Made by a program: the position numbers and the translations under genes. From contig JBAYMR010000003.1 in the NCBI GenBank assembly GCA_041663445.1, positions 21,123 through 85,122 on the forward strand: a DNA stretch of 64,000 nucleotides, written 5' to 3'. The notes beneath the pieces are model-generated. The model made no database searches and had not been told where the DNA came from. It was given only the letters and a program-made list of their open reading frames with translations. The DNA comes from Candidatus Micrarchaeia archaeon. GTDB taxonomy: Archaea > Micrarchaeota > Micrarchaeia > Anstonellales > Anstonellaceae. Position 1 is the first letter of the stretch; each line of letters begins with the position of its first letter. This document shows, one piece after another, positions 2,405-50,049 of this stretch.

Positions 2405-4630
2405 TTACTGGCCTGCAGCTTCCGAGCACTTCGCTTCGCCGGCCGCTTTCACGGCTTCAACGGCATTTGCCCTGCTTTCAACCGAAACCTTGCTTGTCTT
2501 GGTTTTGGCCTTGGCAGTTGCATTTAAGGCCGGCTTCTGTTTTTTGGCAGTCGGCGCAACGTCATCGGATGCCTTGCTCGTTTTCTTGGCCGTGCTGGCA
2601 ATCTTTGCGTTCTTGGCCTGCTTGTCTGTCTCGGTCAATGGCGTAGGAACGGGCAACACGCTTCCGCTCGGGCTTATGCCTGCGTAGGACACCTTGAAGG
2701 CTGGCTTGCTGCTGAGGAAGTTGTACGTGCCTCCCCTGGGCGTCTTCTCGAAGTTGTCGGTCTGGTAGACCACTATCTCGCGCAGGGAGTCTGCAACCGT
2801 GCTTGAGCCCGCGCCAGTGTAGTCGCGGTTCTTCCACAGGAGCGACACGCGGAAGTTCTTGTCAGGTGAGGCCGAGGACACCATGTCGTACCTGTATCCG
2901 TCCCTGAGGAAGATTTCCTCGGAGTAGATTGCGGTCTCCGCCCACTTCTCGCCCATCGTGAAGCCCGGGTGGGTCTTGTACGCATGTATCTTTACGCTGC
3001 TGTTGGTTCCTGCCTGTACGAAGGTGTACGTAGTTCCAGGGCACATTTCTACCTGCCCTACGACTGCATTGCCGGAATCCAGCACGTCATATATTGCCGG
3101 GAATTCTCCATTCTGGCAAGTATATGCGACTGAAACATCTGCAAGGCGCACTGACAGCGGGGAGTCCGATAGCGTTTGGCCCTGCATAAGAAGGCCATAT
3201 TTCTTTTCCTTTGCAAGCCTTATCTGCCCGCCGTTTATCGCGGCAGTCGAGCTTGCAAGCTCCGCTGTCGGCGCAACCATCTCGGAGAGTATCCATTCAT
3301 CATTGAGGAAACGGACCGTGAGGCGGTGCCTGTCTGTAAGCGGGCTGTATGTTGAGGTTCCGAAACTTCCATTGCACGACGTCCAGTCGTCAAGCGTGGT
3401 GAGATTGCCCGTGCAAACAGGGATGCCAAAGTCATTTCCCTCGAACTTGGCGCTGTCCACCATGGCGGAGTACTTGTTCACAATCACGTCCCGCATTGCC
3501 GAGCTGGCATCGTACGCAACTCCTGACGGCGTGCTGCCAATCCAGTATGCCTGCTTCTCATTGTAAGTGGCGCCTGCCTCGTCATCAACCACGGTATAGT
3601 CTGCAAACGGCGCGTACTCGCTTCCGCCTATCTTGTAGAGATTCTTCGCAACCGTGGCGTTTTGCGCAACCGCGCGCAGGGGCGAGGTTATTGCCCCGTT
3701 TGTGTCGGAGTCCGAAAGCATCGAGGGGTATTCGTCCTCGGGAAGCGTGTTCTGCCTGTTCTGCGGCGTCCTGTCCACAGTGTCCGTTATCAGCGTCTCA
3801 AAACTGTACAGCGGCCAGTTGGAGTTGGGGCCGCCGACTGAAGGCTTTGCCGTCCTGAATGTAAATGTGGGCTTTGCAAAATGGGTGGCAATCTGCGCGC
3901 TCACGCCCGTTGTAGTGACTGCGAGCCAGCGCGAGCCGCGCTCGGTCACAAAGACAGGCTCATAAGAGACATAGCCTGGCCCTGCAAATGTATTGTAATA
4001 TACTGCTGAAGCCGCACCCTCTTCCTTGAATCTCAGGGTCGAGTAGCTTGGGTTGGAAATGTATTCTATTGCCGTGTTTGCACCGCCAATTCCAATGCCT
4101 TCATTCAAGACAATGGTGTGCTTGGTGCTGCCGGAAATGAGTGCATTCTCAAACCTCAGGTTTCCCCAAGCTGTTCCGGGGTCGCCTGCGGCATTCAAGC
4201 CAATCATCGGTTCAATAATTATCACATTGTTCCAGTTATAGCAGTCCCTTCCGGGGGCTTTCCAGAAAATGCGCGGTTCCCATTCATTGGTGTTGGTGGA
4301 TTGGAAGTAAGTGCCGTTGAGCGAGGTGGAACCCGTGCCTGTAAGGCCAATCGGGTCAAAGAGCACCTTGGCAAAATAATAATCCCCTGAAAGCGCGTCC
4401 CCAGGGCCTCCGAAAATCGCCGAGGACGATTTCATCTCAATCAGTTTCGCGCCCTGGTAAATCCAGTCCTGCGAAGCGGAAGCGCCGCAGGCAACGTCTC
4501 CTGCCTGTGTCGCCACGCGATAAGTATCGGCTGAAAGCGCAGCATACGTCAATGGGACAACCGGATAGCTGCCTGCAAAAGCAAGCGAGAACATCAGCAT
4601 TATCCCGAGCAGCATTGCATTATACCTCAT
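2405..4630 (-). CDS. Secreted S-layer-like beta-rich protein with a Lys/Ala-rich C-terminal tail
   Basis: AGGTGG ribosome-binding site before the ATG at 4630. Signal peptide MRYNAMLLGIMLMFSLAFA, Thr/Ser/Gly/Tyr-rich body, basic low-complexity tail. The S-layer assignment is an inference. Confidence 0.55.
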   Translation of the reverse strand: MRYNAMLLGIMLMFSLAFAGSYPVVPLTYAALSADTYRVATQAGDVACGASASQDWIYQGAKLIEMKSSSAIFGGPGDALSGDYYFAKVLFDPIGLTGTGSTSLNGTYFQSTNTNEWEPRIFWKAPGRDCYNWNNVIIIEPMIGLNAAGDPGTAWGNLRFENALISGSTKHTIVLNEGIGIGGANTAIEYISNPSYSTLRFKEEGAASAVYYNTFAGPGYVSYEPVFVTERGSRWLAVTTTGVSAQIATHFAKPTFTFRTAKPSVGGPNSNWPLYSFETLITDTVDRTPQNRQNTLPEDEYPSMLSDSDTNGAITSPLRAVAQNATVAKNLYKIGGSEYAPFADYTVVDDEAGATYNEKQAYWIGSTPSGVAYDASSAMRDVIVNKYSAMVDSAKFEGNDFGIPVCTGNLTTLDDWTSCNGSFGTSTYSPLTDRHRLTVRFLNDEWILSEMVAPTAELASSTAAINGGQIRLAKEKKYGLLMQGQTLSDSPLSVRLADVSVAYTCQNGEFPAIYDVLDSGNAVVGQVEMCPGTTYTFVQAGTNSSVKIHAYKTHPGFTMGEKWAETAIYSEEIFLRDGYRYDMVSSASPDKNFRVSLLWKNRDYTGAGSSTVADSLREIVVYQTDNFEKTPRGGTYNFLSSKPAFKVSYAGISPSGSVLPVPTPLTETDKQAKNAKIASTAKKTSKASDDVAPTAKKQKPALNATAKAKTKTSKVSVESRANAVEAVKAAGEAKCSEAAGQ

Positions 4631-4870
4631 ATATCCACCTCGCACTCTATTATCAGGGGCTTCTTGACTGAACACTTTTTATATATAGTGGTCAATCCTG
4701 TTTTCATCACTTTTGAAAACACTGCTCCCCGCACACAACTGGCGCGAGCCGTGCTTAAAAAGAATTCCCGGGCTGCAGCCGGGGCGGATATATAAAGGTT
4801 GTGCGGTCCGAAGCCTTGCTCACGAAGTAAGTCCTGCTCACAAAGTAGGAAGGTTGCTCAGAAAGTCAAA

Positions 4871-5230
4871 TTAACGATATTTTTCAGATGTCTTTAGTTT
4901 CAAATTGCTTCCTGTTTTGTTGGTTTTTACACTAAACTCAAATTTTCTTTCAGCTATCTTTGCCTTTTCTTCCCTGCCTCGTAAAAACCATAAAATGCTC
5001 CCTATCAGCTTTGTTGTGCCTTCAATATCGGCTGCCACGCCAAGAATTTTAAAAATTATGCCAATCGAATTAGCCTTTCTAACCTCTATAATAAATTCTA
5101 AGTCTTTCTCTTCAATTAGTCCATGATATGTATTCACTTTGCCTCCAATGTTCTTCAAGACTACCCCTGCATCTATAGGGTCAAGCTTCATCTCAACTGA
5201 GAAGATTTCCTCTTTTTTAGGCTCATTCAT
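4871..5230 (-). CDS. Hypothetical protein (cargo of the TIR element)
   Basis: 119-aa ORF in the AT-rich island; no recognisable motif. Confidence 0.55.
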   Translation of the reverse strand: MNEPKKEEIFSVEMKLDPIDAGVVLKNIGGKVNTYHGLIEEKDLEFIIEVRKANSIGIIFKILGVAADIEGTTKLIGSILWFLRGREEKAKIAERKFEFSVKTNKTGSNLKLKTSEKYR

Positions 5231-5291
5231 TCAACCACTCTGCAAGAGTAGGGGGCGAAAGAAGTAAAAGCGTTGCCTTCTTAACAGAAAG

Positions 5292-5678
5292 GTGGATGCG
5301 CCTGTTGAAATAAGAAATACTTCTCCCATACCAATTAAATTAGAGGAAAATTTCGCAAATCGTAATATCAAAAAACTGGATAGAATTGCAGAACTTTCAA
5401 TCATCACAATTACTGGCTTCTCATTTGTTTATTCAAAATTGCCTTCCATTTTTTTGATTGGCTCGTTTGTACTACTTGCATTTGTAACTATTTTTTCGGT
5501 TTTTGGCATTTACCTTTTTGAAGGAACTATATTTAGTCTAGGTGGTTCTGCCATTACAGATAAGAAAATTCTTTTTTATCGCCCCAAAGCAGAGCATTTC
5601 TTTAAGTGGATACCCTGCGCTTATGCGATGTATGTGCTGGCTGTTTTTCTGTTTATATTGGCTATTTTACTATCATAA
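5292..5678 (+). CDS. Hypothetical membrane protein (cargo of the TIR element)
   Basis: 128-aa ORF with about 3 hydrophobic segments; GTG start uncertain. Confidence 0.5.
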   Translation: MDAPVEIRNTSPIPIKLEENFANRNIKKLDRIAELSIITITGFSFVYSKLPSIFLIGSFVLLAFVTIFSVFGIYLFEGTIFSLGGSAITDKKILFYRPKAEHFFKWIPCAYAMYVLAVFLFILAILLS

Positions 5679-5855
5679 GAAAATCTTTTCTGCTCATAAA
5701 ATGTCTCACTCGCTCACAAAGTCGTTCAAACCGATTACTTTATGAGCAAGGCTGCGGTCCGAAGCATATTCTACGTCGCAGAAAATAGACACCCTGCTGT
5801 GCTGCAAGTTTTGCTTTAATGGAAATAAAGGCGCGCGCATCTGTTCAATGAAAAA

Positions 5856-6845
5856 TCAGTACTTCACGTTCTTCTTCGCAATCGCAATCCTGGGCACGAG
5901 CGCGTTTGCAACAGCCTGCTCGACCTGGTCTGCGCGGTGCATCACGCCGTTCGAGAACCAGCCCAGCGCGCCCTGCTTCCTGCCAATGCCTTCCACGCCC
6001 GCAAGCTGTGCCATCACGCGCGAGAGGTCGGATTTCCCGCGGATTTTCCCTGCAATCCATGAAGGCACGCAAAAGCCGGCGCCTGTGCCGAATGTCGTGC
6101 CATTCCCGTCAAACACGCAGCAGACCGTGATGTCGAAGAACTCGCCCTTCCTCATTTCGAATAAGCCAGACTCTATGCCAACAGAATAATCGCATTTTCC
6201 TTTCGCCCTCTTCCACGCGGCGCGCGCCCTGTTCTCCGCGCCCGCAAAAGTCTCGGCATCGAACGGGTGGTGGCTCACGCGCGAATCCTCCTTGTGCCCA
6301 TGCAATATGAATTTCCTGCCGAACACGCGCGCAAGCGCGGTGCGCGCCCCTGACAGCTTTGTCGGGTTGTCGGTGCCTGCCTGAACTGCAACGGGCGCGC
6401 GAAGCTTTCCCTTCACATCGTATTTTCCGTGGAAAATGTCCTCGCATGAGATTTTCTTCAGGTTGTCCGCATAGGCAAGCGGCACTGAGGTTATTTCCAG
6501 CGCAGGCAGGCCGCGCTTCCTGCGCGCGGCGTTTATTTTCCTTGCGGCTGCCTCGGTTTCCTCGCTCACGATTATGGTGCCTGCGTCGGATTCCGGCGCC
6601 ACGCCCTCCTCGGTGCCGATTTCCACTATGGTGGAGTGCGCGAGCATCCCGTTGTTCGCCAGGTTTTCCTTGAGGTTGGCAAGGCGCCTGGCGTACGGGA
6701 AAGACGGGTATATCTTGTGCGCGCGCACATACCTGTCGGAGGTAAGCCCTATCGTGATTTTCGAGAATTTGCTGCATTCGAGCAGGAGCCCCACGTGCCC
6801 CGCGTGGATGTAGGTGAAAGTCCCGCCTATTATGCAATGCGTCAT
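5856..6845 (-). CDS. coaD: Bifunctional phosphopantetheine adenylyltransferase (archaeal CoaD) / inosine-xanthosine triphosphatase (YjjX-like)
   Basis: N-terminal GGTFTYIHAGH, IGLTSD and IIVSEET motifs. C-terminal GTDNPTK, GAENRA, VGIESG and GALGWFSNG motifs of the non-canonical purine NTPase family. Confidence 0.85.
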   Translation of the reverse strand: MTHCIIGGTFTYIHAGHVGLLLECSKFSKITIGLTSDRYVRAHKIYPSFPYARRLANLKENLANNGMLAHSTIVEIGTEEGVAPESDAGTIIVSEETEAAARKINAARRKRGLPALEITSVPLAYADNLKKISCEDIFHGKYDVKGKLRAPVAVQAGTDNPTKLSGARTALARVFGRKFILHGHKEDSRVSHHPFDAETFAGAENRARAAWKRAKGKCDYSVGIESGLFEMRKGEFFDITVCCVFDGNGTTFGTGAGFCVPSWIAGKIRGKSDLSRVMAQLAGVEGIGRKQGALGWFSNGVMHRADQVEQAVANALVPRIAIAKKNVKY

Positions 6846-6867
6846 GTGTACACCTTATGGCAGCCGC

Positions 6868-7509
6868 TCACTGGCACGATACGAGCTTCTTTATCTCGTC
6901 CGCAGATAGCACCTTGCCGTGCGTCTTCCCGTTCACCACAAGCGAAGGCGCGGACGTGATGTTGTATTCCATCCTTATCATGTCCAGTGTCGCCATGCTT
7001 TCCTTTATGTCCATCACAAAGGTGCGCATGTTGGGGCACGATGCGCGCACGGAGTCGAGTATCTTGCCCTGCACCTGGCACTCGCTGCACGACGGGTCGG
7101 ACGAGTAGATGTACAGCACGTCCGTGTGCGTGGCGTTGCAGTACTGCTTTTGCATCTGCGACACCTGCCAGAGCTGGATGTTCGAGAGCAGGAACTGGCG
7201 CTTGAGCGCGAAGAACTCGGCAAACAGGTTCGCTCTCTCATAGGCAAGCATCCTGTCCATGAGGTCGTTTGTTTTCGTGATTTTCTGCTGGTACGCCGAG
7301 TCTATTATCGTGCAATACTCCGCGTTTTGCGGCCCGGTCCGCAGGAGCGACACCGCGCTTTCAAGGTCCGCAGTCTCCGTGGAAAACGAGGACAGGTCGT
7401 TGGTGAATCGCAGCAGCCGCTGCATGTCCATGTAGTCTATCACAGAAAGCGTGATGAAGAACAGGTTGACCATGATTATGACTGCCATTGCATACTTGAG
7501 ATTCACCAT
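6868..7509 (-). CDS. Membrane-anchored thioredoxin-fold protein
   Basis: N-terminal TM helix, helical linker, CSEC (CxxC), and YNITSAPSLVVNG (cis-Pro region). Confidence 0.65.
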   Translation of the reverse strand: MVNLKYAMAVIIMVNLFFITLSVIDYMDMQRLLRFTNDLSSFSTETADLESAVSLLRTGPQNAEYCTIIDSAYQQKITKTNDLMDRMLAYERANLFAEFFALKRQFLLSNIQLWQVSQMQKQYCNATHTDVLYIYSSDPSCSECQVQGKILDSVRASCPNMRTFVMDIKESMATLDMIRMEYNITSAPSLVVNGKTHGKVLSADEIKKLVSCQ

Positions 7510-8774
7510 TGCAAATCACTTCCCCGTATTTCCTTGTACAGGCTATAAACATAAAAACCAGCGTTCACGAACGGGTAGACGAAAATCACCATGAGGAGGC
7601 CCGGCAGCTTGTCGAGCCCCAGCTTTTCCTTGATGAGCGACAGGCTCACCATCAGGAAAAACAGGTATGTGAGCAGGAAGGACAGGAACATCAGCATGTC
7701 CGCCCTGATGTAAAGCGGGTCCAGCGCAAGGGACGGCATCTGCCCGTACGCGGCAAACTGCGCGGCCTGCAGCCCGCTTTCAAGGATGAATCGCGCGCCG
7801 CGTGCCAGCACGAAAAAGAACGACACGATGGTGATTGGCACATACGCCGCCGTCACCGGGAAGGAGAACGTGCCGACTTCCGCATACTTGTCGTTGAACA
7901 TCAGGTCCTTGTATAGCGCGAGGTTGAACATGGTGCCCCTGTACCATCTTACCCTCTGCCTCATCAGGGCCGAGAACGTGGTCGGAACCTCGGTGGGCAC
8001 GTTTATCGGCAGGTAGCCTATCACGTAATGCGACTTGTGGAGCTTGAGGCCCATCTCGAAGTCCTCCGTTATGTTGTTCTCGTCAAAGCCGCCGATTTTC
8101 TCAAGCGCGCTCCTCCTGAAGATTGTGAGCGGGCCGGGCGTCACCAGTATCGCGTTGAATTTCGAGCCAAGGTAGGGGAACGCGCCGAACGAGAAATAAT
8201 ACTCCATCTGCTGCATCTTCTGCCAGATGTTGCGCGGCCTGTTCACGGTTATGTAATAGGTCATCGCGCCCATCTCCGGCGTGATGTATGGGACGCTGTC
8301 CATGAGCAGGTTCTCCGGCGGGTAGGTGTCCGAGTCCACGCATGCGACCAGGTCGCCCTTCGCCTGCTTTATCGCCTCGTTGAGCGACGCCGCCTTCCCC
8401 TTGTTTTCCCTGCGGTGCATTATCCTGACGGGGAACTTCGCGGCAATCTCCCGCGTCCTGTCGGTGCTTCCGTCGTCCACCAGCACCACTTCGTACTTTT
8501 GCGGGTATTTCATGGCGAGCACATGGCGCAGGCATTCATCAATCGTCTTTTCGCTGTTGTAGGACGGCACGATGATTGTGAGGCTCGGGTATTTGCCCGT
8601 GTTCCCCATTTTCTTCTCGTCGAAAAGCGTGAGCCCGTAGAATGAGACGACGAATAGGTTGACCAGGAAAATCAGGCAGATGTAGGCCAGCTGGAAGGAG
8701 GGGTCCATCACCACGAACACAAGGAACGCCACGATGAAGCCAAGAATCGAAGTGAACCCTAGAAACTCACGCAT
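7503..8774 (-). CDS. Processive family-2 glycosyltransferase (PgaC/cellulose/hyaluronan synthase-like)
   Basis: DDGSTD, KGKA, DSD, TED and QRVRW motifs plus flanking TM helices. Confidence 0.88.
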   Translation of the reverse strand: MREFLGFTSILGFIVAFLVFVVMDPSFQLAYICLIFLVNLFVVSFYGLTLFDEKKMGNTGKYPSLTIIVPSYNSEKTIDECLRHVLAMKYPQKYEVVLVDDGSTDRTREIAAKFPVRIMHRRENKGKAASLNEAIKQAKGDLVACVDSDTYPPENLLMDSVPYITPEMGAMTYYITVNRPRNIWQKMQQMEYYFSFGAFPYLGSKFNAILVTPGPLTIFRRSALEKIGGFDENNITEDFEMGLKLHKSHYVIGYLPINVPTEVPTTFSALMRQRVRWYRGTMFNLALYKDLMFNDKYAEVGTFSFPVTAAYVPITIVSFFFVLARGARFILESGLQAAQFAAYGQMPSLALDPLYIRADMLMFLSFLLTYLFFLMVSLSLIKEKLGLDKLPGLLMVIFVYPFVNAGFYVYSLYKEIRGSDLQW

Positions 8775-12867: not shown

Positions 12868-13248
12868 ATGGAGAATTATCACGGCGCACGCGGTTCGACT
12901 ACGAAAGGCACGGGCGGCAAGCGCGGGAAGGCTGCGGACAAGAAGCTCCGCTTTGTAGGAGGCACATTCACGGCCACCAAGGTCGGCCCGAAGGAACTGC
13001 GCTCGGTGAAGCGCGGGCGCGGGAACACCGCAAAGGTGAAGCTCCGCACCGCCAAGTTCGTCAACGTGCTCACAAAGGAAGGCATGAAGAAAGTGACGCT
13101 GCGCACAGTGCTCGAGACTCCCGACAACCGCCACTACGCGCGCCAGAACATCCTCACGCGCGGCGCTGTCGTGGACACCGAAATCGGGAAGGTGAAAATC
13201 ACCAACCGCGTCGGGCAGGACGGGGTAGTCAACGGCAAGCTGCTTTAA
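12868..13248 (+). CDS. rps8e: 30S ribosomal protein S8e
   Basis: TGGKR...VLETPDNRHYARQNILTRGAVVDTEIGKVKITNRVGQDGVVNG. GGAGG SD upstream. Confidence 0.95.
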   Translation: MENYHGARGSTTKGTGGKRGKAADKKLRFVGGTFTATKVGPKELRSVKRGRGNTAKVKLRTAKFVNVLTKEGMKKVTLRTVLETPDNRHYARQNILTRGAVVDTEIGKVKITNRVGQDGVVNGKLL

Positions 13249-13285
13249 TTGCCGTTGGCTATAAGTTGCGCAAGAGCGCAACTGT

Positions 13286-13309
13286 GTCGTGAACGGCAAG
13301 CTGCTGTAG
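13286..13309 (+). repeat. Recoded duplicate of the last 8 codons of rps8e
   Basis: GTCGTGAACGGCAAGCTGCTGTAG versus the gene end GTAGTCAACGGCAAGCTGCTTTAA (13225-13248): 20/24 identical, with all differences at third codon positions. Confidence 0.8.
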
Positions 13310-13552
13310 TTTCTTCTTCTGTTTTTTTCTGTTATTTTTATTTTTGTATTTGTAAATTTGATAACCACCGCCTGCGAGCCAGTTGTCTGATACATTTTCG
13401 GTGCGCCGAAAATGTACATTTACAAATGCGGACAAATTTCTCTGGAATTTTGTCCTTTGTGCGAAAAGATATATTTCAATCTACTGTTTTCAGGGGCACC
13501 ATATCTTTTTAAACACTTTGTGGCAGAAAATATAAAAGGGAGGTTGAAAAAA

Positions 13553-14335
13553 ATGTTTCTTTTTTACGTTGGCATAGAGCACGAATCCGATACTTTTGGG
13601 CAGAAACTTGTCAATAGCGCCATCTACGCTTCTTCTGATAAAATGAAGGCGTGGCAGGCAAAATTCGAAGAAGGTGCGTTGGTCAAATGCGAGGAATTCG
13701 CAGGCAGGCTGGGATCGCTCAATATGGCAGTGGCCATCAGGGATACTGTTAGTTTGCGGCAATTCATCATGGACGGGGTTGCCGGCCTCAAGGAATACGA
13801 GGTGCTCCGGCACGACGTGCCCAACCACAAAAAGCGATCCGATGCCGCGTTGTACTCGACTGCACTTTCGCTCATGGCGATATTCAAATGCTACGAAAAA
13901 AATTGGGGCGAACCATTGCGCCATGCGCTTAAAGACGAGCAAGTCTCTTTCCCAGAACTGCGTGACTGCATTTCATCGTGGCTTAGAAACACGGACAGCA
14001 TCCAGCTGAACGCAGCCGTGAAGGAGAGGAATCCCGGCTTGGTGGTTGACCTTTTGGCATATTATTCGAATTTGAATAATCCGGCTGACCAGCTGGTTGT
14101 CTATTCCATTATCAAACAATGCTCTGAAAACAGCTGGCGCGAACCGCTGAGCAAATATCTTGAGAAAGATGCTAAAACCTACCCATATTTTAGAGAGGAC
14201 GTCAAGCGCACCCTGGACAAGATGGGGCCTGCAACTGACAAGGATATGGAATCAATGATGAGCAAAATAAAGAAAAAATGTCAGCCTGCTCCTGTTGATG
14301 CCAAAAAAACAATGGGCTGCAAACTCAAGCACTGA
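13553..14335 (+). CDS. Hypothetical helical protein
   Basis: Long ORF with a GGGAGG SD before the ATG at 13553; more AT-rich than the flanks; no motif recognised. Confidence 0.6.
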   Translation: MFLFYVGIEHESDTFGQKLVNSAIYASSDKMKAWQAKFEEGALVKCEEFAGRLGSLNMAVAIRDTVSLRQFIMDGVAGLKEYEVLRHDVPNHKKRSDAALYSTALSLMAIFKCYEKNWGEPLRHALKDEQVSFPELRDCISSWLRNTDSIQLNAAVKERNPGLVVDLLAYYSNLNNPADQLVVYSIIKQCSENSWREPLSKYLEKDAKTYPYFREDVKRTLDKMGPATDKDMESMMSKIKKKCQPAPVDAKKTMGCKLKH

Positions 14336-35897: not shown

Positions 35898-36533
35898 TCA
35901 GCCATAATCCAAATATGGCCCGTCCTGATCAAAATCAATGCGTATCCTTTGGTGGCAGGCATTTCGAAGCTCGGTAGAGCTTCCATGATAAAGATGCAGA
36001 TTGATTGTCCTGACACCGAACTTCTTGATGACTTCAATTCCTGGCACAAAGTCGCCATCGCCAGAAAGGAGAATCACCGCCTCGTGCTCCTTGGTCCGCG
36101 CAAGCTCTATGGCATCCGCAATCAGCATAACATCTATGCCTTTCTCCTTTGTCAGCCGTATCAGCCCAAGCTTTTTGAGCAGCGCCCATATTTTCTGCCT
36201 GCAAGCATCCACAATGCCGACTTCGGCTGCAGCATTTTCCACTTCGTCTAAAGTCAGGTTGGCAATGTAACGCAGTTTCCTTGTCTTTATCTTAAGTGGC
36301 ACAGCAAGCTTTGACAGGCTTGAATGGAACCTCTGTTGCCCTGCATAGCCTTCGGGGTCTCTTATCCTGTCCTTGAGGGCATCATAAAAGTAGATGTGCT
36401 TAAGCTCGAACTTGTCCGACAGCTGCTGGAAAAGCATGTCAAAATGCTCTGCATTGAACGGAAGTTTGTTGTCAGCTTTGAGAGAATGGTAGAAGTTGGA
36501 GCTATCAATGAAAAGTGCGGCTATGGTCTTCAT
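35898..36533 (-). CDS. NYN-domain (PIN-like) protein
   Basis: FIDSSNFY, EKGIDVMLIAD and LLSGDGDFVP. Confidence 0.88.
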   Translation of the reverse strand: MKTIAALFIDSSNFYHSLKADNKLPFNAEHFDMLFQQLSDKFELKHIYFYDALKDRIRDPEGYAGQQRFHSSLSKLAVPLKIKTRKLRYIANLTLDEVENAAAEVGIVDACRQKIWALLKKLGLIRLTKEKGIDVMLIADAIELARTKEHEAVILLSGDGDFVPGIEVIKKFGVRTINLHLYHGSSTELRNACHQRIRIDFDQDGPYLDYG

Positions 36534-36883
36534 AAAAAGAACCATTAGCCTGCGGTTGCCCGCCCTCGCGGGAAGGCAAACGCAGGGAAGCAATGTTTCC
36601 ATTGTGCCAAGTTAGGTTTTAAAGGCTTTGCCATCGTCGAAAAACTGTTGAAACGCCGCCTCGCGCTTTACGTGATATAAGTCATTGCGATATTCTATCT
36701 TCAGTTTTCGTAGTATGAAAGACGAGGCTGTGCAAATAATAAAGAGCCAAATCCCGGGGCTTTTAGCGTCGTTCAAGTTTCAAAGTGATACAAATCGTTC
36801 CAGGCGCGTCGTGTGCTTAAACGCCTTTTTTACTTGGGATGGCAGGCAATCAGGCTTTTAATTTCACCCTGCGTGGCATCAAG

Positions 36884-38632
36884 ATGGCAAAAGCAAAAGA
36901 TGGCAACTATTCCTGGCTGTGGCTCGCATTGGTTTTCGTCGGGGCGGCAATCATTTTCTCGATTGCCCTGCCTGCCGGGCATGCTGCGCAAGAGGAGCCT
37001 GCGCAGCAGGCAAGCTATCCAATCGATTCCAATGCCGTTACAACGCTTGACAGGGTAGTTCTTCCAGTTCCCGTGCCATCAACGTCCCCCAAGCTCCCTC
37101 CCGAGGCGATTTCCAATTTCTCGCAGTATGGCTATGGCAAGTGGGAGTACGGGCGCGGGCTTGGCTTTGAAAAAAGGCTGGACCTCATGCCCTCCGCGTA
37201 CAATGGCACGTCCGCCACGGGAGCTGCAAGGCTCCTGAATTTCTTCACCATGACCGACATCCACCTTACCGACAAGGAATCCCCCGCAGAGGCGGTCTAT
37301 TACGGCTACAAATGGGGCGTAATCTCGGGGTATTCCCCCGCCATGCTATACACAACACACATGCTCGACGCAGCCATCCAGACCGTCAACTCCCTCCACA
37401 AGGAAAACCCGTTTGATTTCGGCATCTCATTGGGCGACGATATCAACAGCGCGCAGTACAACGAGCTAAGATGGTTCATAGACGTCCTTGACGGCAAGAA
37501 CATAATCCCCGATTCCGGCGCCAGGGATGACCCGGTCCCCGGGCCACTCAATGATTACCAGGACGAATACAGGGCGGCAGGGCTTGACAAGTCAATCCCG
37601 TGGTACCAGGCGCTTGGCAACCACGACCATTTCTGGATGGGCATGTTCACCCCCGACTCTTACGTCAAGGATGCCATGGCTGGCAATGCATCGCTTGACA
37701 TCGGCAACATATTCACCAGCCCCCTTGGCATAAAATCCCGCGGCTTCTACATGGGCGCAATAGACGGCAGGACGCCTTACGGCGACATTGTGGGCGCAGG
37801 CCCCGTCGGCAATTTCCCATCCGCCCCAGTTGTGCCTTCCGACCCAGACCGCCGCTTCCTTTCCAAAAACGAGTGGATGGCCGAATTTTTCAACACGACA
37901 TCAAAACCCGCAGGGCACGGATTCACCCAAGCGGGCGTGGCGGACGGGTTTGCCTGCTACTCTTTCGAGCCGAACTCAAGCCTGCCCGTCAAGGTCATTG
38001 TGCTTGACGATACGCAAGGGGAAGACGACACCGATGGCAACAGCGGGCACGGCTCCATTGACCAAAAGCGCTATGACTGGCTTGTGAAAGAGCTGGACGC
38101 GGGCCAGGCTGAAGGCAAGCTCATGATAATCGCCGCGCACATCCCGATAGGCATTGAACTGGACAGCTCTGGGCTTGGCGCCCTGATGACTTGGAGCGAA
38201 TACGCGGCTGTATCCGATACCGCGCTTCTTGCCAAGCTCCACACATACCCGAATCTCATATTGCTGGTCGCAGGGCACCGCCATTTCAATACAGTCACTG
38301 CGCTAAAATCGCCCGATGCCTCCCGCCCTGAGCTTGGCTTCTGGGAGGTCGAAACCGCGTCATTGAGGGAGTTCCCCCAGCAGTTCCGCACTTTCGAGAT
38401 TGTCCGCAACAGCGACAACACAATCTCCATATTTGCAACCGATATTGACCCTGCTGCAAAAGAAGGCTCCCCCGCCGCGCTGTCCCGCTCTTATGCCATT
38501 GCGGCGCACCAGATATTCAATGATTCGAAAACCAACATGCCCTCCGGGGCATACAACGTGGAGCTGGTCAAGCAACTGACTCCTGAAATGCAGGCAAAAA
38601 TAAAGAACTACGGGACGCCCTTGGGCAAGTGA
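36884..38632 (+). CDS. Secreted calcineurin-like metallophosphoesterase (TIGR03768-like)
   Basis: N-terminal TM/signal, FFTMTDIHLTDKESP, GDDINS, GNHD, AAHIP and AGHRH motifs. Confidence 0.8.
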   Translation: MAKAKDGNYSWLWLALVFVGAAIIFSIALPAGHAAQEEPAQQASYPIDSNAVTTLDRVVLPVPVPSTSPKLPPEAISNFSQYGYGKWEYGRGLGFEKRLDLMPSAYNGTSATGAARLLNFFTMTDIHLTDKESPAEAVYYGYKWGVISGYSPAMLYTTHMLDAAIQTVNSLHKENPFDFGISLGDDINSAQYNELRWFIDVLDGKNIIPDSGARDDPVPGPLNDYQDEYRAAGLDKSIPWYQALGNHDHFWMGMFTPDSYVKDAMAGNASLDIGNIFTSPLGIKSRGFYMGAIDGRTPYGDIVGAGPVGNFPSAPVVPSDPDRRFLSKNEWMAEFFNTTSKPAGHGFTQAGVADGFACYSFEPNSSLPVKVIVLDDTQGEDDTDGNSGHGSIDQKRYDWLVKELDAGQAEGKLMIIAAHIPIGIELDSSGLGALMTWSEYAAVSDTALLAKLHTYPNLILLVAGHRHFNTVTALKSPDASRPELGFWEVETASLREFPQQFRTFEIVRNSDNTISIFATDIDPAAKEGSPAALSRSYAIAAHQIFNDSKTNMPSGAYNVELVKQLTPEMQAKIKNYGTPLGK

Positions 38633-48412: not shown

Positions 48413-49099
48413 TTACTTTTTCCCGTCGGTGTGCTGCGAGAAGAACTGTTTCCTGGCGTCAGGCGCGGGCTTTTTTTCCTTCCTGCGCCCCTCGGAGAGC
48501 GGCTCCTCGATGCCAAGCTGCCCCTCTTCCTCCTCCATCATCCTCCTTTCCTTGAGGTTGAACCTCTCCTGGCTTTTCCTCCGCCTCTCATTGTCCTCCT
48601 GCTCGCTTGGCGCCCTGATGCCGATTTTTCCCGGCGGAGGAATCTGGATAACTTTTGGCTTCTGCCTCACGCCGAGCGCAAGCGCCATTTTTTCCACGAA
48701 AAGCGAAAGCAACGAAGCGCCCCCCGGGCTTGCGCCGCCGGGCGCCCCGACCGAGTAGCAATTGGAGCAAAGCTTCCTGCCAAGGATGGCATAAAGCGTG
48801 TCGGTTTCCCGCCCGCACCGCTCGCAAATCCCGAGGGCGTTGCCCTTCTCCCCCGCCCTTCCATCCCCCGCCTTGCCCCTCTTCTCCTCGTCTTGGATGT
48901 CCATTATGCAATATGAGCAGTAAAGCCGCGAACTGTGCATGCGGAGCTCGTAGCTGGGGAGGTACATCCCGCAGCGCTGGCACTGCACGTTTGCGCTGCC
49001 GCCCTGCGCGCCGCCTGCCGACTCGCAGTTCTGGCAAATCATGTCCCCGCCCGCGTCGAATTCCCCGAGCGGCCCCCCGCATTTTATGCAGCTTGCCAT
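48413..49099 (-). CDS. Multi-zinc-finger protein
   Basis: Six CxxC pairs (CIKC, CQNC, CQRC, CSYC, CERC, CSNC) and a charged C-terminal tail. Confidence 0.7.
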   Translation of the reverse strand: MASCIKCGGPLGEFDAGGDMICQNCESAGGAQGGSANVQCQRCGMYLPSYELRMHSSRLYCSYCIMDIQDEEKRGKAGDGRAGEKGNALGICERCGRETDTLYAILGRKLCSNCYSVGAPGGASPGGASLLSLFVEKMALALGVRQKPKVIQIPPPGKIGIRAPSEQEDNERRRKSQERFNLKERRMMEEEEGQLGIEEPLSEGRRKEKKPAPDARKQFFSQHTDGKK

Positions 49100-49474
49100 G
49101 CCAAATGCTCGCATGCGGTGTATTTATTGGTTTGCAGCCCGCGCGGCTTTTCCCGAAAATCCCGCTCCGCATGGAATGCGATTAAATCAGTTATAATGTG
49201 CCTGATTGCGCTTAAATCAGACATTAGCTTGCCGTTTTCAAAAAAATCAAGGATAGAAATGCCAAATCAAGCCAAAATGCTTATTACAGTGCCTAATTGA
49301 ATAAAAGAAGCTTTTAAGGCTCTTTTTCTGAAAAAGAACGCTATAAATGCCCTCTTTTGTGCCAATAGCGCGTATAATCTTCCTTTTTTCTGCGATATGG
49401 CAAACGTTTATAAGCAATAACTCTCACGGAAATAGCATGTTTCCCTAGACCGGGAACGGGAGGAAAAGAAACAA

Positions 49475-49912
49475 ATGTTTGGACCGCACTTGACGATGGA
49501 CATGTATGGATGCAATAAAAAGAAGCTCAAAGACATCAATTTCGTTTCCACTTTCTTGGACGAGCTGCCGTCATTGATTGGCATGACCAAGATAATGCCG
49601 CCCTATACGTTCTCATACTCCGGCCTCAAGCCCGAGGACTGGGGCGTGTCGGGCATAGTGCTGATAGCCGAATCGCACATCAGCATCCACACCTTCCCGG
49701 AGAAGAATTACGCATCGCTTGACATATTCTCCTGCAAGGATTTCGACGTCGAGGCCGCGGCGGACATCATAGCCTCCAAGTTCGAGGTAAAGACGTACGA
49801 GAAGAACTTCCTCATGCGCGGAAGGCACTTCCCCAAGGACGTCATGAGGAACCGCCAGATAATCGAGCTTGAACGCGAGCGCGATTCAAGCCGCGTGAAG
49901 AACAGCGAGTAG
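49475..49912 (+). CDS. speD: S-adenosylmethionine decarboxylase proenzyme (pyruvoyl type)
   Basis: GVSGIVLIAE|SHISIHTFPE and DIFSC. An arginine-decarboxylase paralog cannot be excluded. Confidence 0.85.
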   Translation: MFGPHLTMDMYGCNKKKLKDINFVSTFLDELPSLIGMTKIMPPYTFSYSGLKPEDWGVSGIVLIAESHISIHTFPEKNYASLDIFSCKDFDVEAAADIIASKFEVKTYEKNFLMRGRHFPKDVMRNRQIIELERERDSSRVKNSE

Positions 49913-50049
49913 TTTCCTCCTTTTCAGTTTTCTTCCTGCCCCAGCGCAAGCGTGCTGCAAGGGCAAATCCGGCATGCAATGAAAGGCAAAATCTGTCTGC
50001 TATTGGAAATGCGATGAGATGCAATACAAAAATAAAAACGAACGCCCCC

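Follow-up and report, generated by a model that had tools for sequence, protein, structure and literature searches.

Mobile insertion cassettes (MICs) and MITEs are transposase-less derivatives of insertion sequences (ISs) that are mobilized in trans (PMC3129680), MIC231 of Bacillus cereus being one of several described MICs (PMC6199540, PMC5444012). Here, we describe a transposase-less mobile cassette at positions 4812–5753 (942 bp) of the window, the 64-kb stretch of DNA that we analysed. Like MICs and MITEs, the cassette has IS-type inverted ends and is flanked by the target duplication of its family; it also lacks a transposase, carries passenger ORFs unrelated to transposition and has an autonomous cognate elsewhere. 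Judged by the features that define MICs, it has ends of the autonomous type, no transposase, a 9-bp duplication and empty sites in two related genomes (G006 and G021). Unlike the known MICs, it resides in a DPANN archaeon, and its parent is itself a cargo-carrying 'transporter IS', which appears to have given rise both to minis of 44–85 bp and to cassettes of ~0.9 kb; we infer mobilization in trans from copies at different loci and from a parent element with the same cargo.

A 9-bp duplication is typical of the IS903 group. As in IS903 and IS17, the partner of the cassette combines this duplication with a DDE_Tnp_1 domain and a Y-2-R-3-E-6-K signature, and the ends of its family measure ~18–19 bp and open with GGCTTTG. 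Unlike in IS903 and IS17, the transposase of the family bears an additional SWIM zinc finger at its N terminus, and the elements are 3.8–6.8 kb long, carry cargo, possess asymmetric subterminal repeats and insert at sites anchored to TATA boxes.

This last property invites comparison with elements that choose promoters as targets. In yeast, the retroelement Ty3 is directed to Pol III start sites by TFIIIB, whose components include TBP together with a TFIIB-like factor. In the archaeal family, too, integration appears to be registered with a promoter complex of the TBP type, which offers safe ground where genomes are compact; unlike Ty3, which uses an integrase, the cassette is a DNA transposon, and a role of TBP and TFB is our hypothesis here, while for Ty3 the involvement of the host factor has been proven. 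Among bacterial DNA transposons, the TnGBS conjugative elements and the insertion sequences ISLre2 and ISKra4 encode Mutator-like DDE transposases, and their insertions fall 15–17 bp ahead of the -35 box in sigma-A promoters (PMC3942029). Like these elements, members of the cassette family land at a constant spacing just before a core promoter, here a predicted one, and thereby spare promoter and gene. The family differs from them in its DDE_Tnp_1/IS5-like transposase without the Mutator-like (p-MULT) signature, in its landmark, an archaeal TATA/BRE at an offset of 6 nt, and in an orientation that is not strict. Since the transposase families are unrelated, the behavior is analogous rather than homologous.

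Taken as a whole, we consider it highly likely that the cassette is a non-autonomous cargo transposon of an IS5-like SWIM-DDE family, inserted in register with a TATA box and probably immobile today. Our literature search turned up neither a paper on archaeal IS elements or MITEs inserted in register with TATA boxes nor one on the SWIM-DDE transposon family, and no such safe-harbor mechanism for archaea, the nearest cases found being TnGBS/ISLre2 at sigma-A promoters and Ty3 in yeast.

The cassette and its ends

The cassette has a GC content of ~0.36–0.38, compared with 0.56 genome-wide, and its bounds on the plus strand were set against 10 full-length relatives. It is delimited by 19-bp terminal inverted repeats, AGCCTTGCTCACGAAGTAA on the left (4812–4830, plus strand) and AGCCTTGCTCATAAAGTAA on the right (5735–5753, read on the minus strand), which match at 17 of 19 positions and both open with AGCCTTGCTCA. 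Matches to contigs from the X4 lake metagenome start or stop exactly at 4812 and 5753. Immediately outside lies a perfect 9-bp target duplication, GCGGTCCGA, at 4803–4811 and 5754–5762. The exact direct repeat is longer, namely the 13 nt of TGCGGTCCGAAGC at 4802–4814 and 5753–5765, which occur at these two places only in the 1.2-Mb genome. The additional bases, T and AGC, are the last base and the first three bases of the element, so that the repeat reaches 13 nt because the host flanks coincide with the element's tips. As 10 of 10 full-length relatives show 9-bp duplications, the true duplication is GCGGTCCGA and not the longer repeat.

An earlier, sequence-only reading of this DNA had already proposed 18-bp inverted ends at 4813–4830 and 5735–5752, whose match at 16 of 18 positions we reproduced, and had noted the AT-rich interior with two divergent ORFs, both of which we see as well. 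It had favored an 11-bp flanking duplication; the exact repeat is real and in fact 13 nt long, but 11 bp does not hold as the target duplication, and it is the alternative given there, 19-bp ends with a 9-bp duplication, that the 10 full-length relatives uphold. Further copies of the ends with up to three mismatches were absent from the 64-kb window (0.07 expected by chance).

Both ends also contain a 12-nt motif, TGCTCAYRAAGT, of which six copies lie inside the cassette's two ends. The whole window holds seven matches, compared with 0.88 expected, a number reached by none of 100 shuffles. At the left end, three direct copies (4817–4828, 4835–4846 and 4855–4866, plus strand) are presumed to be transposase-binding sites, and the same three-copy layout is found in the elements L077, L078, L079, L081 and L083, between which the end motif co-varies. 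The right end has two copies on the plus strand (5691–5702 and 5711–5722) and a terminal one on the minus strand (5737–5748), and this layout of one terminal and two opposite subterminal copies is kept in relatives. As the arrangement differs from that on the left, the ends of the cassette are asymmetric. The motif does not feature in the earlier reading.

Empty sites and sister copies

In two other species of the same genus, the orthologous site is uninterrupted (G006:C2 and G021:C31). Both contigs are colinear with the window across the junction, with flanks that are 75–81% identical, and in each of them the target occurs once, with the TATA box beside it. A near-identical empty allele was found neither in X1 and X2 nor in the JGI contig L121, and the three metagenomes that hold the strain have an identical filled site. 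The mobility of the cassette was not seen directly.

The genome contains a sister cassette on another contig (C13:32123–33004), upstream of gyrB, which has the same end design, a different cargo and a duplication of ~9–10 bp. We found it by inspecting AT-rich islands and weak end matches. Together with a 44-bp relic of the same family on contig C11, this brings the copies in this genome to two cassettes and one relic. Searches for further copies by plain DNA similarity, BLAST and tblastx yielded one solo end elsewhere in the genome and nothing else, and a genome-wide scan for direct repeats and inverted ends around AT-rich DNA returned the cassette and one unrelated structure on contig C1. A loose end pattern applied to 23 genomes of the genus recovered a handful of true ends, with counts similar to those of controls. 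Related genomes contain an 85-bp mini element (G003:C19) and a 44-bp one (G022:C26), the latter with an empty orthologous site in G018:C6 and with exactly the same GCGGTCCGA target as the cassette in the window.

The autonomous partner and the origin of the cassette

An autonomous element of 5124 bp with ends near-identical to those of the cassette is present in a congener (G006:C3) and encodes a SWIM and DDE transposase. Its terminal repeat, AGCCTTGCTCATAAAG, is perfect (16/16), and its target duplication, CATCGGCCA, measures 9 bp. The ends of the two elements have AGCCTTGCTCA(Y)RAAG and the subterminal motif layout in common, and the left terminal repeat of the cassette agrees with the ends of the G006 element at 14 of the latter's 16 terminal bases. 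The family comprises ten full-length elements of 3.8–6.8 kb, all with 9-bp duplications, whose ends start with (A/G)GC(C/T)TTG and which carry cargo, such as restriction-modification genes.

The transposase of the G006 element (403 aa) matches DDE_Tnp_1 (Pfam PF01609, E 9.4e-21) and, weakly, SWIM, and displays the Y-2-R-3-E-6-K signature (YHKRSNVESTNSMVK in translation). Its best NCBIfam model is NF033579 (transpos_IS5_2), with a score of 121.2 bits that lies below the cut-off of 140, and it shares ~25% identity with IS17-type transposases, in the catalytic part only. We therefore place the family by resemblance, as a putative IS5-like family nearest to the IS903 group. The ends of IS17, taken from a copy whose transposase carries the annotation 'IS5-like element IS17 family', read GGCTTTGTTGCACAAA and are identical to those of the family member L086 at 14 of 16 positions. 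The earlier reading had left the IS family unassigned.

How the cassette arose is indicated by a 2360-nt contig from the X4 lake metagenome, in which the cassette's right end and its second passenger ORF, ORF2, are followed directly by the gene for this SWIM and DDE transposase. Over 503 nt, it differs from the right end and ORF2 of the cassette at 17 positions (96.6% identity), and the homology begins at ~5251, a breakpoint within the spacer between the two passenger ORFs. Since the contig joins the right end and ORF2 to a transposase gene, the cassette reads as an internal-deletion derivative; by this sequence comparison, it is shown to descend from a cargo-carrying autonomous parent with the same right end and ORF2.

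These comparisons bear out every prediction that the sequence-only reading had put forward for checking. It had called the locus a non-autonomous cargo-carrying transposon, for which the X4 contig, in tying ORF2 and the right end to a transposase gene, provides support. It had also proposed to look for sister elements with other cargo, which exist on C13 and in several relatives, for empty-site alleles, now found in G006 and G021 with one target copy each, and for an autonomous partner with a transposase or casposase, which turned out to be the element on G006:C3, with the same ends and a DDE transposase rather than a casposase.

Insertion in register with TATA boxes

On the minus strand, a TATA box, TATATAAA (4789–4796), and a 6-nt spacer, GGTTGT (4797–4802), which sits at the position of a BRE, form the landmark of the host target (4789–4802). 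The same geometry recurs throughout the family: in 13 of 13 archaeal sites examined, from the phyla Micrarchaeota, Aenigmarchaeota and Hadarchaeota, a TATA-like box lies exactly 6 nt outside the duplication. At each of them, the 8-mer at the 6-nt offset contains seven or eight A/T bases, as is the case at 2.5% of background positions; for two of the 13 sites, the offset carries an uncertainty of 1 nt. Insertion is thus not random, the 9-bp target being keyed to a predicted TATA box, and we infer a causal relation from this pattern. The family-wide register points to insertion aimed at putative promoters.

The TATA-side gene points away from the element in six of nine sites (the window, C13, L078, L079, L081 and L083). 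In L079, its ATG follows 23 nt past the TATA box, and on the opposite side, a gene's 3' end faces the element in the window, C13, L078 and L083. The gene layout of L086 does not fit the picture of a promoter that fires away from the element. In the window, the TATA-side gene (2405–4675, minus strand) is transcribed away from the cassette, with a start codon 114–157 nt from the box. A second TATA-like box lies nearer to this gene (4679–4692), and TATATAAA may not be the gene's main promoter. The sequence-only reading had noticed the TATATAAA box and placed the insertion just downstream of it; the box is indeed present, 6 nt from the duplication, but the gene layout puts the cassette just upstream of a putative promoter directed outward, not downstream of one that reads into it.

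The left end faces the promoter in ~7 cases and the right end in ~3, which rules out a strict orientation rule. Likewise ruled out, for most sites, is promoter capture, in which the TATA box would drive transcription into the element; beyond the far end, there is mostly the 3' end of a gene in convergent orientation.

Within the reading that we favor, the family transposase, which combines a SWIM zinc finger at the N terminus with a catalytic DDE_Tnp_1 domain, would be supplied in trans and bind the 19-bp terminal repeats together with the 12-nt subterminal copies, three direct ones on the left and one terminal plus two opposite ones on the right. Target cuts staggered by 9 bp, followed by joining, would then produce the GCGGTCCGA duplication. 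The element would land directly before the BRE/TATA core of an outward-firing promoter, a placement that would leave the promoter and both neighboring genes intact and the spot reusable.

The same register could in principle arise without active targeting, either from a preference for AT-rich or bent DNA or from wide insertion followed by the survival of those events that spare genes and promoters. IS231A and other IS4/IS5-type elements favor bent, AT-flanked targets, and a genome with 56% GC offers few AT-rich spots besides its TATA boxes. In these very compact genomes, intergenic space is also tight at some sites, the gene on the other side ending 3 nt from the element in L083 and 21 nt in L078. 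We nevertheless consider this explanation unlikely, as selection alone should spread the offsets, while an offset of 6 nt holds across all 13 sites and three phyla, and as the register is kept in the window and in C13 despite a spacer of 60–110 nt that appears neutral. Moreover, on G003:C14 and on one X4 contig, the right end of one element is followed by 9 bp and then by the left end of the next. On G003:C14, this 9-mer recurs at the outer boundary of one element, next to the TATA box, an arrangement that a second insertion into exactly the same 9-bp target would leave.

If insertion is indeed aimed at promoters, a tentative possibility, to which we give less than even chances, is that the transposase docks on the pre-initiation complex, or on the DNA bend therein, without reading the TATA sequence itself. 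In this complex, TBP would occupy the TATA box and TFB the 6-nt BRE, and integration would occur into the first free 9 bp upstream. Such docking would account for the bacterial (Planctomycetota) relatives of the transposase, which show no TATA association. It would make the family the DNA-transposon counterpart of Ty3 with TFIIIB, and promoter-anchored stacking of cassettes a general route of gene gain for compact DPANN genomes.

By itself, the cassette is of an ordinary kind, an IS derivative that has passenger genes but no transposase. With its traceable parent, it gives an example of orphan genes becoming packaged and spreading between DPANN archaea. Of wider bearing is the insertion rule, together with the reuse of the same spot: if the promoter or the factors bound to it are recognized, such spots would constitute a promoter-anchored 'safe harbor' for archaeal DNA transposons, and the TATA register could serve as a promoter marker, readable from sequence, in uncultured archaeal lineages.

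Present mobility and other origins

Homologs of the cognate transposase are absent from the 23 contigs of the cassette's own genome, an 89%-complete MAG from a landfill sample, and the cassette is therefore probably immobile at present, stranded with two orphan genes. That it is still mobile here, through a transposase on unassembled or extrachromosomal DNA, is decidedly unlikely in our view. Its six motif copies, both ends and the perfect duplication are intact, the MAG is 89% complete, and contigs of X1 and X2 contain short stretches at least 80% similar to the transposase gene, all of which would suit continued mobility. The short matches, however, have a depth of 46 compared with about 10, which fits other organisms; the 23 contigs contain no homolog of the transposase, and no sample of the three shows the site empty or polymorphic.

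Very improbable is a site-specific integrative cassette, integron-like or of the att type, mobilized by a tyrosine or serine recombinase, with the direct repeat as att core. The 13-nt length of the exact repeat, the use of GCGGTCCGA at two loci (the window and G022:C26) and subterminal repeats that might be arm-type binding sites could be read in this way. Against it, the flanking repeat varies from copy to copy (GCGGTCCGA, CATCGGCCA, CAGGCGCGGG-type, TGTATTGAG and others), and is 9 bp long throughout the ten full-length elements; the ends form inverted repeats similar to IS17 ends; and the full-length elements encode a DDE transposase, with no integrase among the genes of the G006 element. 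A relic of a casposon or of another self-synthesizing element could likewise be archaeal and show terminal inverted repeats along with a target duplication, but such an origin has almost no probability, since neither the cassette nor its full-length relative in G006 contains Cas1 or PolB, the partner encodes a DDE transposase and the duplication is 9 bp long, not the ~14–15 bp that casposons leave.

The passenger genes

The cassette contains two ORFs only, ORF1 of 119 aa (4871–5230, minus strand) and ORF2 of 128 aa (5292–5678, plus strand). Neither matches any model in Pfam, NCBIfam or PADLOC, including those for transposases. Rfam and tRNA scans of 4400–6000 and 3000–8000 returned no known RNA, which rules out a tRNA or small RNA as integration target.

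ORF2 is hydrophobic, with several long hydrophobic stretches, and is probably a membrane protein; among 5.8 billion clustered proteins, it found no homolog except itself. ORF1, by sequence similarity, is a member of a small protein family, with one relative of 66% identity in a different context (P0003) and three further ones of 102–116 aa at 28–43% identity. AlphaFold2 predicts a ferredoxin-like fold with beta-alpha-beta-beta-alpha-beta topology (pLDDT 80.7). In fold searches, this model hit nothing more specific than ferredoxin-like, PII-like and ACT-like folds of a generic kind (TM ~0.45–0.5), and we therefore assign no function to ORF1. The two genes appear to have their own divergent promoter in the spacer between them (5231–5291), where AAGTAAAAG at 5264–5272 is a possible bidirectional TATA-like box serving both.

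Structure, cargo and insertion site of the cassette

The transposase-less cassette occupies positions 4812–5753 of the window (942 bp). Its inverted ends and its flanking direct repeat, first noticed in a sequence-only reading, are both real: within the window, the 18-mer GCCTTGCTCACGAAGTAA is found solely at 4813–4830 and, as an inverted copy with two mismatches, at 5735–5752, and an exact direct repeat of 13 nt, TGCGGTCCGAAGC (4802–4814 and 5753–5765), has just two copies across the whole host genome. The extent of the target duplication can be regarded as settled at 9 bp (GCGGTCCGA), with ends of 19 bp, because all ten full-length relatives described below have 9-bp duplications and ends starting with (A/G)GC(C/T)TTG; the alternative offered in that reading, a 19-bp TIR with a 9-bp duplication, is thereby borne out. 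A 12-nt motif, TGCTCAYRAAGT, is concentrated in the cassette ends (seven matches in the window versus 0.88 expected), the left end having three in direct orientation (4817, 4835 and 4855) and the right end two direct ones (5691 and 5711) plus an inverted, terminal one (5737).

As already described, the interior is AT-rich (~37% GC versus 56% for the host genome, a Candidatus Micrarchaeota (DPANN) MAG of 1.2 Mb in 23 contigs) and holds two divergent ORFs, ORF1 (4871–5230, minus strand, 119 aa) and ORF2 (5292–5678, plus strand, 128 aa), whose 61-nt spacer contains AAGTAAAAG, possibly a TATA-like box shared by both. Further GC dips (0.48–0.49) are seen in the window at 13001–14000, 36001–37000 and 49001–50000. 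ORF1 belongs to a tiny family: a JGI protein encoded in unrelated AT-rich surroundings is 66% identical to it, and three further proteins of 102–116 aa are 28–43% identical. Its confident AlphaFold2 model (pLDDT 80.7) has a beta-alpha-beta-beta-alpha-beta fold and matches generic folds only, namely ferredoxin-like, PII-like and MgtC-C-terminal-domain folds; a protein of 590 aa (P0006) matches ORF1-like sequence in eight separate stretches. ORF2 retrieved no homolog besides itself in the protein search and is small, with several long hydrophobic stretches as judged by eye from the translation. PADLOC returned no match for either ORF.

The cassette lies between a gene for a 756-aa protein, family unassigned, whose start faces it (2405–4675, minus strand), and a gene encoding cytidylyltransferase-like and NTPase_I-T domains, whose 3' end faces it (5856–6845, minus strand); the region contains no tRNA genes and no Rfam matches. 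Among the 40 related genomes covered by our search for empty sites, both flanks are contiguous in two congeneric species (G006:C2 and G021:C31). Queried with the two flanks joined via one copy of the 9-mer, both align colinearly over the junction and have the TATA box and, after it, just one diverged copy of the target. This shows the 942 bp to be an insertion, as had been proposed, with empty-site alleles preserved in relatives. In another congener (G003:C25, locus L017, ~840–1560 of the reverse complement), the orthologous intergenic region is occupied by an IS200/IS605-type Y1 transposase gene with an HLHMFV motif and flanking hairpins; this spacer therefore accumulates different mobile elements. 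It also carries a ‘twin TATA’ module (TTTATAWA, 27 nt, TTTTTAAG, with GYGGTCCGA alongside), which is conserved at two loci per genome in the genus: it is seen at 4757–4811 of the window, near 9432 on contig C21 of the same genome, and in G018:C6, G012:C5, G007:C36 and G013:C11 (L018–L021). This module was hit twice as an insertion target, at the cassette site and in G022:C26.

An autonomous family of IS5-like transposons

An autonomous partner with cassette-like ends, whose existence had been surmised, is found in the congener G006 (contig C3). This element of 5124 bp has a perfect terminal repeat (AGCCTTGCTCATAAAG, 16/16), a 9-bp duplication (CATCGGCCA) and left and right motif layouts as in the cassette. 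Its 403-aa transposase matches DDE_Tnp_1 (E 9.4e-21) and, weakly, the SWIM zinc finger, and displays the Y-2-R-3-E-6-K signature; among NCBIfam models, IS5_2 fits it best, with a score of 121 bits that is under the 140-bit cut-off. The other three of its four proteins form the cargo: an N6-methylase (793 aa, type I/IIG kind) and two small proteins (189 aa and 127 aa).

Across the public genomes scanned, 43 loci encode relatives of the transposase, and ends were definable for 10 of the 15 examined. The ten full-length elements measure 3.8–6.8 kb, all with 9-bp duplications, and reside in Micrarchaeota, Aenigmarchaeota, Hadarchaeota, Gemmataceae, Tundrisphaera and two unclassified archaeal MAGs. 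A duplication of 9 bp is typical of the IS903 group. Matches to the transposase in plasmid records are exclusively IS5-family genes, IS17 included, at ~25% identity, and the ends of an IS17 copy (GGCTTTGTTGCACAAA) are 14/16 identical to those of family member L086; on these grounds, the IS903 group of IS5 appears to be the closest known group.

In an alignment of six elements, the motif occurs at the left ends as three direct copies with constant spacing, and at the right ends as one terminal copy plus two oppositely oriented ones. The motif itself co-varies from element to element (TGCTCAYAAAG, TGCTCCTAAAA, TGCACCTAAAG), as would be expected for cognate transposase-binding sites.

Sister copies and miniature derivatives

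The anticipated sister elements with other cargo are represented in the host genome by a second cassette of the same design (C13:32123–33004, 882 bp, 37% GC). Its ends read GGCTT(T)GCTCC, its duplication is 9–10 bp, and its motif TGCTCCTAAAG forms subterminal repeats in the same asymmetric layout; it carries one different ORF of 207 aa and lies upstream of gyrB, 6 nt from a TATA box. A degenerate relic of 44 bp with two inverted ends (GTTGCTCGTAAAG...CTTCGTGAGCAAGGC) is found at C11:27823–27866, starting 6+9 nt after GATAAAAA and flanked by degenerate 9-mers.

Two congeners contain comparable minis. The first (G022:C26, L013, 12371–12512; 44 bp) has flanking repeats containing GCGGTCCGA and an empty ortholog in G018:C6. 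Its flanking repeat is 13 nt long, and its left end has TGGG in place of AGCC as its outermost 4 nt. These bases are thus a copy of the host flank on the right, and the mini may be a product of repair or conversion. The second (G003:C19, L027, ~36576–36660; 85 bp) is bordered on each side by a 9-mer with a TATA box 6 nt away, but these two 9-mers differ from each other, which suggests that two copies, each at its own promoter, were joined by deletion or recombination.

Insertion in register with TATA boxes

At all 13 archaeal sites examined, a small sample, the 9-bp duplication has on one side, at an outward distance of exactly 6 nt, an 8-mer with at least 7/8 A/T, although this register is ambiguous by 1 nt in two of them. 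The sites comprise both host cassettes, the minis in C11, G022:C26 and G003:C19, element X in G003:C14, and the full-length elements L077, L078, L079, L081, L082, L083 and L086. Most of the 8-mers are good TATA boxes (e.g. TATATAAA, TTTATAAA, TTTAAATA), and such A/T 8-mers cover 2.5% of genome positions. The box is already present in empty sites, so it is host DNA and not element DNA.

The gene on the TATA side is directed away from the element at the cassette site, C13 (gyrB), L078, L079, L081 and L083, and the far side is the 3' end of a gene at the cassette site, C13, L078 and L083. This layout would place the element just upstream of the BRE/TATA core rather than between TATA box and gene, with the 6-nt spacer at the position of a putative BRE. 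In L079, the ATG follows 23 nt past the TATA box, which fits a leaderless mRNA; at the cassette site, the box is 114–157 nt from the neighbour's start codon and another TATA-like box is closer. Either element end may face the box, at a ratio of ~7:3. The three bacterial elements (L089 and L092 from Gemmataceae, L105 from Tundrisphaera) have no TATA box at the insertion site; they keep the 9-bp duplication and GGC ends, and two of them have GGAT(T/A) ~25–28 nt from the duplication on both sides.

Two independent junctions consist of a right end, 9 bp and a left end, in G003:C14 (5935–7817; L015, L058) and in a contig of a lake-water metagenome (X4) with a loose end at 4812; their spacers are CTCAATACA and TCGGAGGGC. 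In G003:C14, where one of the two elements has a decayed transposase fragment, the junction 9-mer recurs at the far end of one element, beside a TATA box, as would be expected if a second element had hit the exact same 9-bp target at the same box.

In the best-supported model, a DDE transposase supplied in trans would drive insertion with a 9-bp stagger at a target anchored to the TATA box. This anchoring may reflect direct sequence readout by the transposase or recognition of the bent promoter bound by TBP/TFB. Selection after insertion may also account for part of the register, but hardly for all of it, given that the offset is constant and the same 9-mer was reused. The sequence variation among the 9-bp duplications, together with a DDE transposase as partner, excludes an att-site/integrase model. 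A casposon, and with it the casposase once suggested as partner, is likewise excluded: no Cas1 or PolB turned up in either the cassette or the G006 element, and the duplication has the wrong length.

Fixed-distance targeting upstream of bacterial sigma-A promoters is known for TnGBS, ISLre2 and ISKra4 (PMC3942029); for archaea, that work remarks only on an AT-rich motif duplicated by ISH6. Neither TATA nor promoter occurs as a word in a 2026 survey of archaeal IS (PMC13343696), and our literature searches found no description of TATA-registered insertion for archaeal elements. The cassette itself represents a known type, a mobile insertion cassette (MIC) or MITE-type derivative as defined in PMC3129680, whose parent is an IS903-like cargo transposon.

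Origin and present state of the cassette

A direct link to this parent is provided by an X4 contig of 2360 nt, which shows 17 differences from the window over 5251–5753, a stretch that includes ORF2 and the right end, and stops 3 nt past the element terminus. It runs on into a SWIM-DDE transposase gene (~80–85% of bases match the G006 copy), and ORF2 fills the slot held by the 127-aa gene in the G006 element. This junction identifies the cassette as an internal-deletion derivative of an autonomous element with the same cargo, with the deletion breakpoint near 5251.

Homolog searches and tblastn to E 10 found no SWIM-DDE transposase in the host assembly, which is 89% complete, and the same site, filled identically, was recovered from a landfill run (probably the source sample), a groundwater run and a JGI contig, none of which shows an empty allele. 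The cassette therefore looks stranded, though at this completeness not with certainty, and we infer its mobility from comparisons with relatives only. The host genome also contains an element of another kind than the cassette family, at C1:10900–11970, in which direct repeats of ~45 bp (…GAGGATACGTTGCCAACGGCAACGARCATCCGCA…) surround a 932-bp AT-rich insert, with extra palindromic GCATCCGCAAATTTTC units just upstream.
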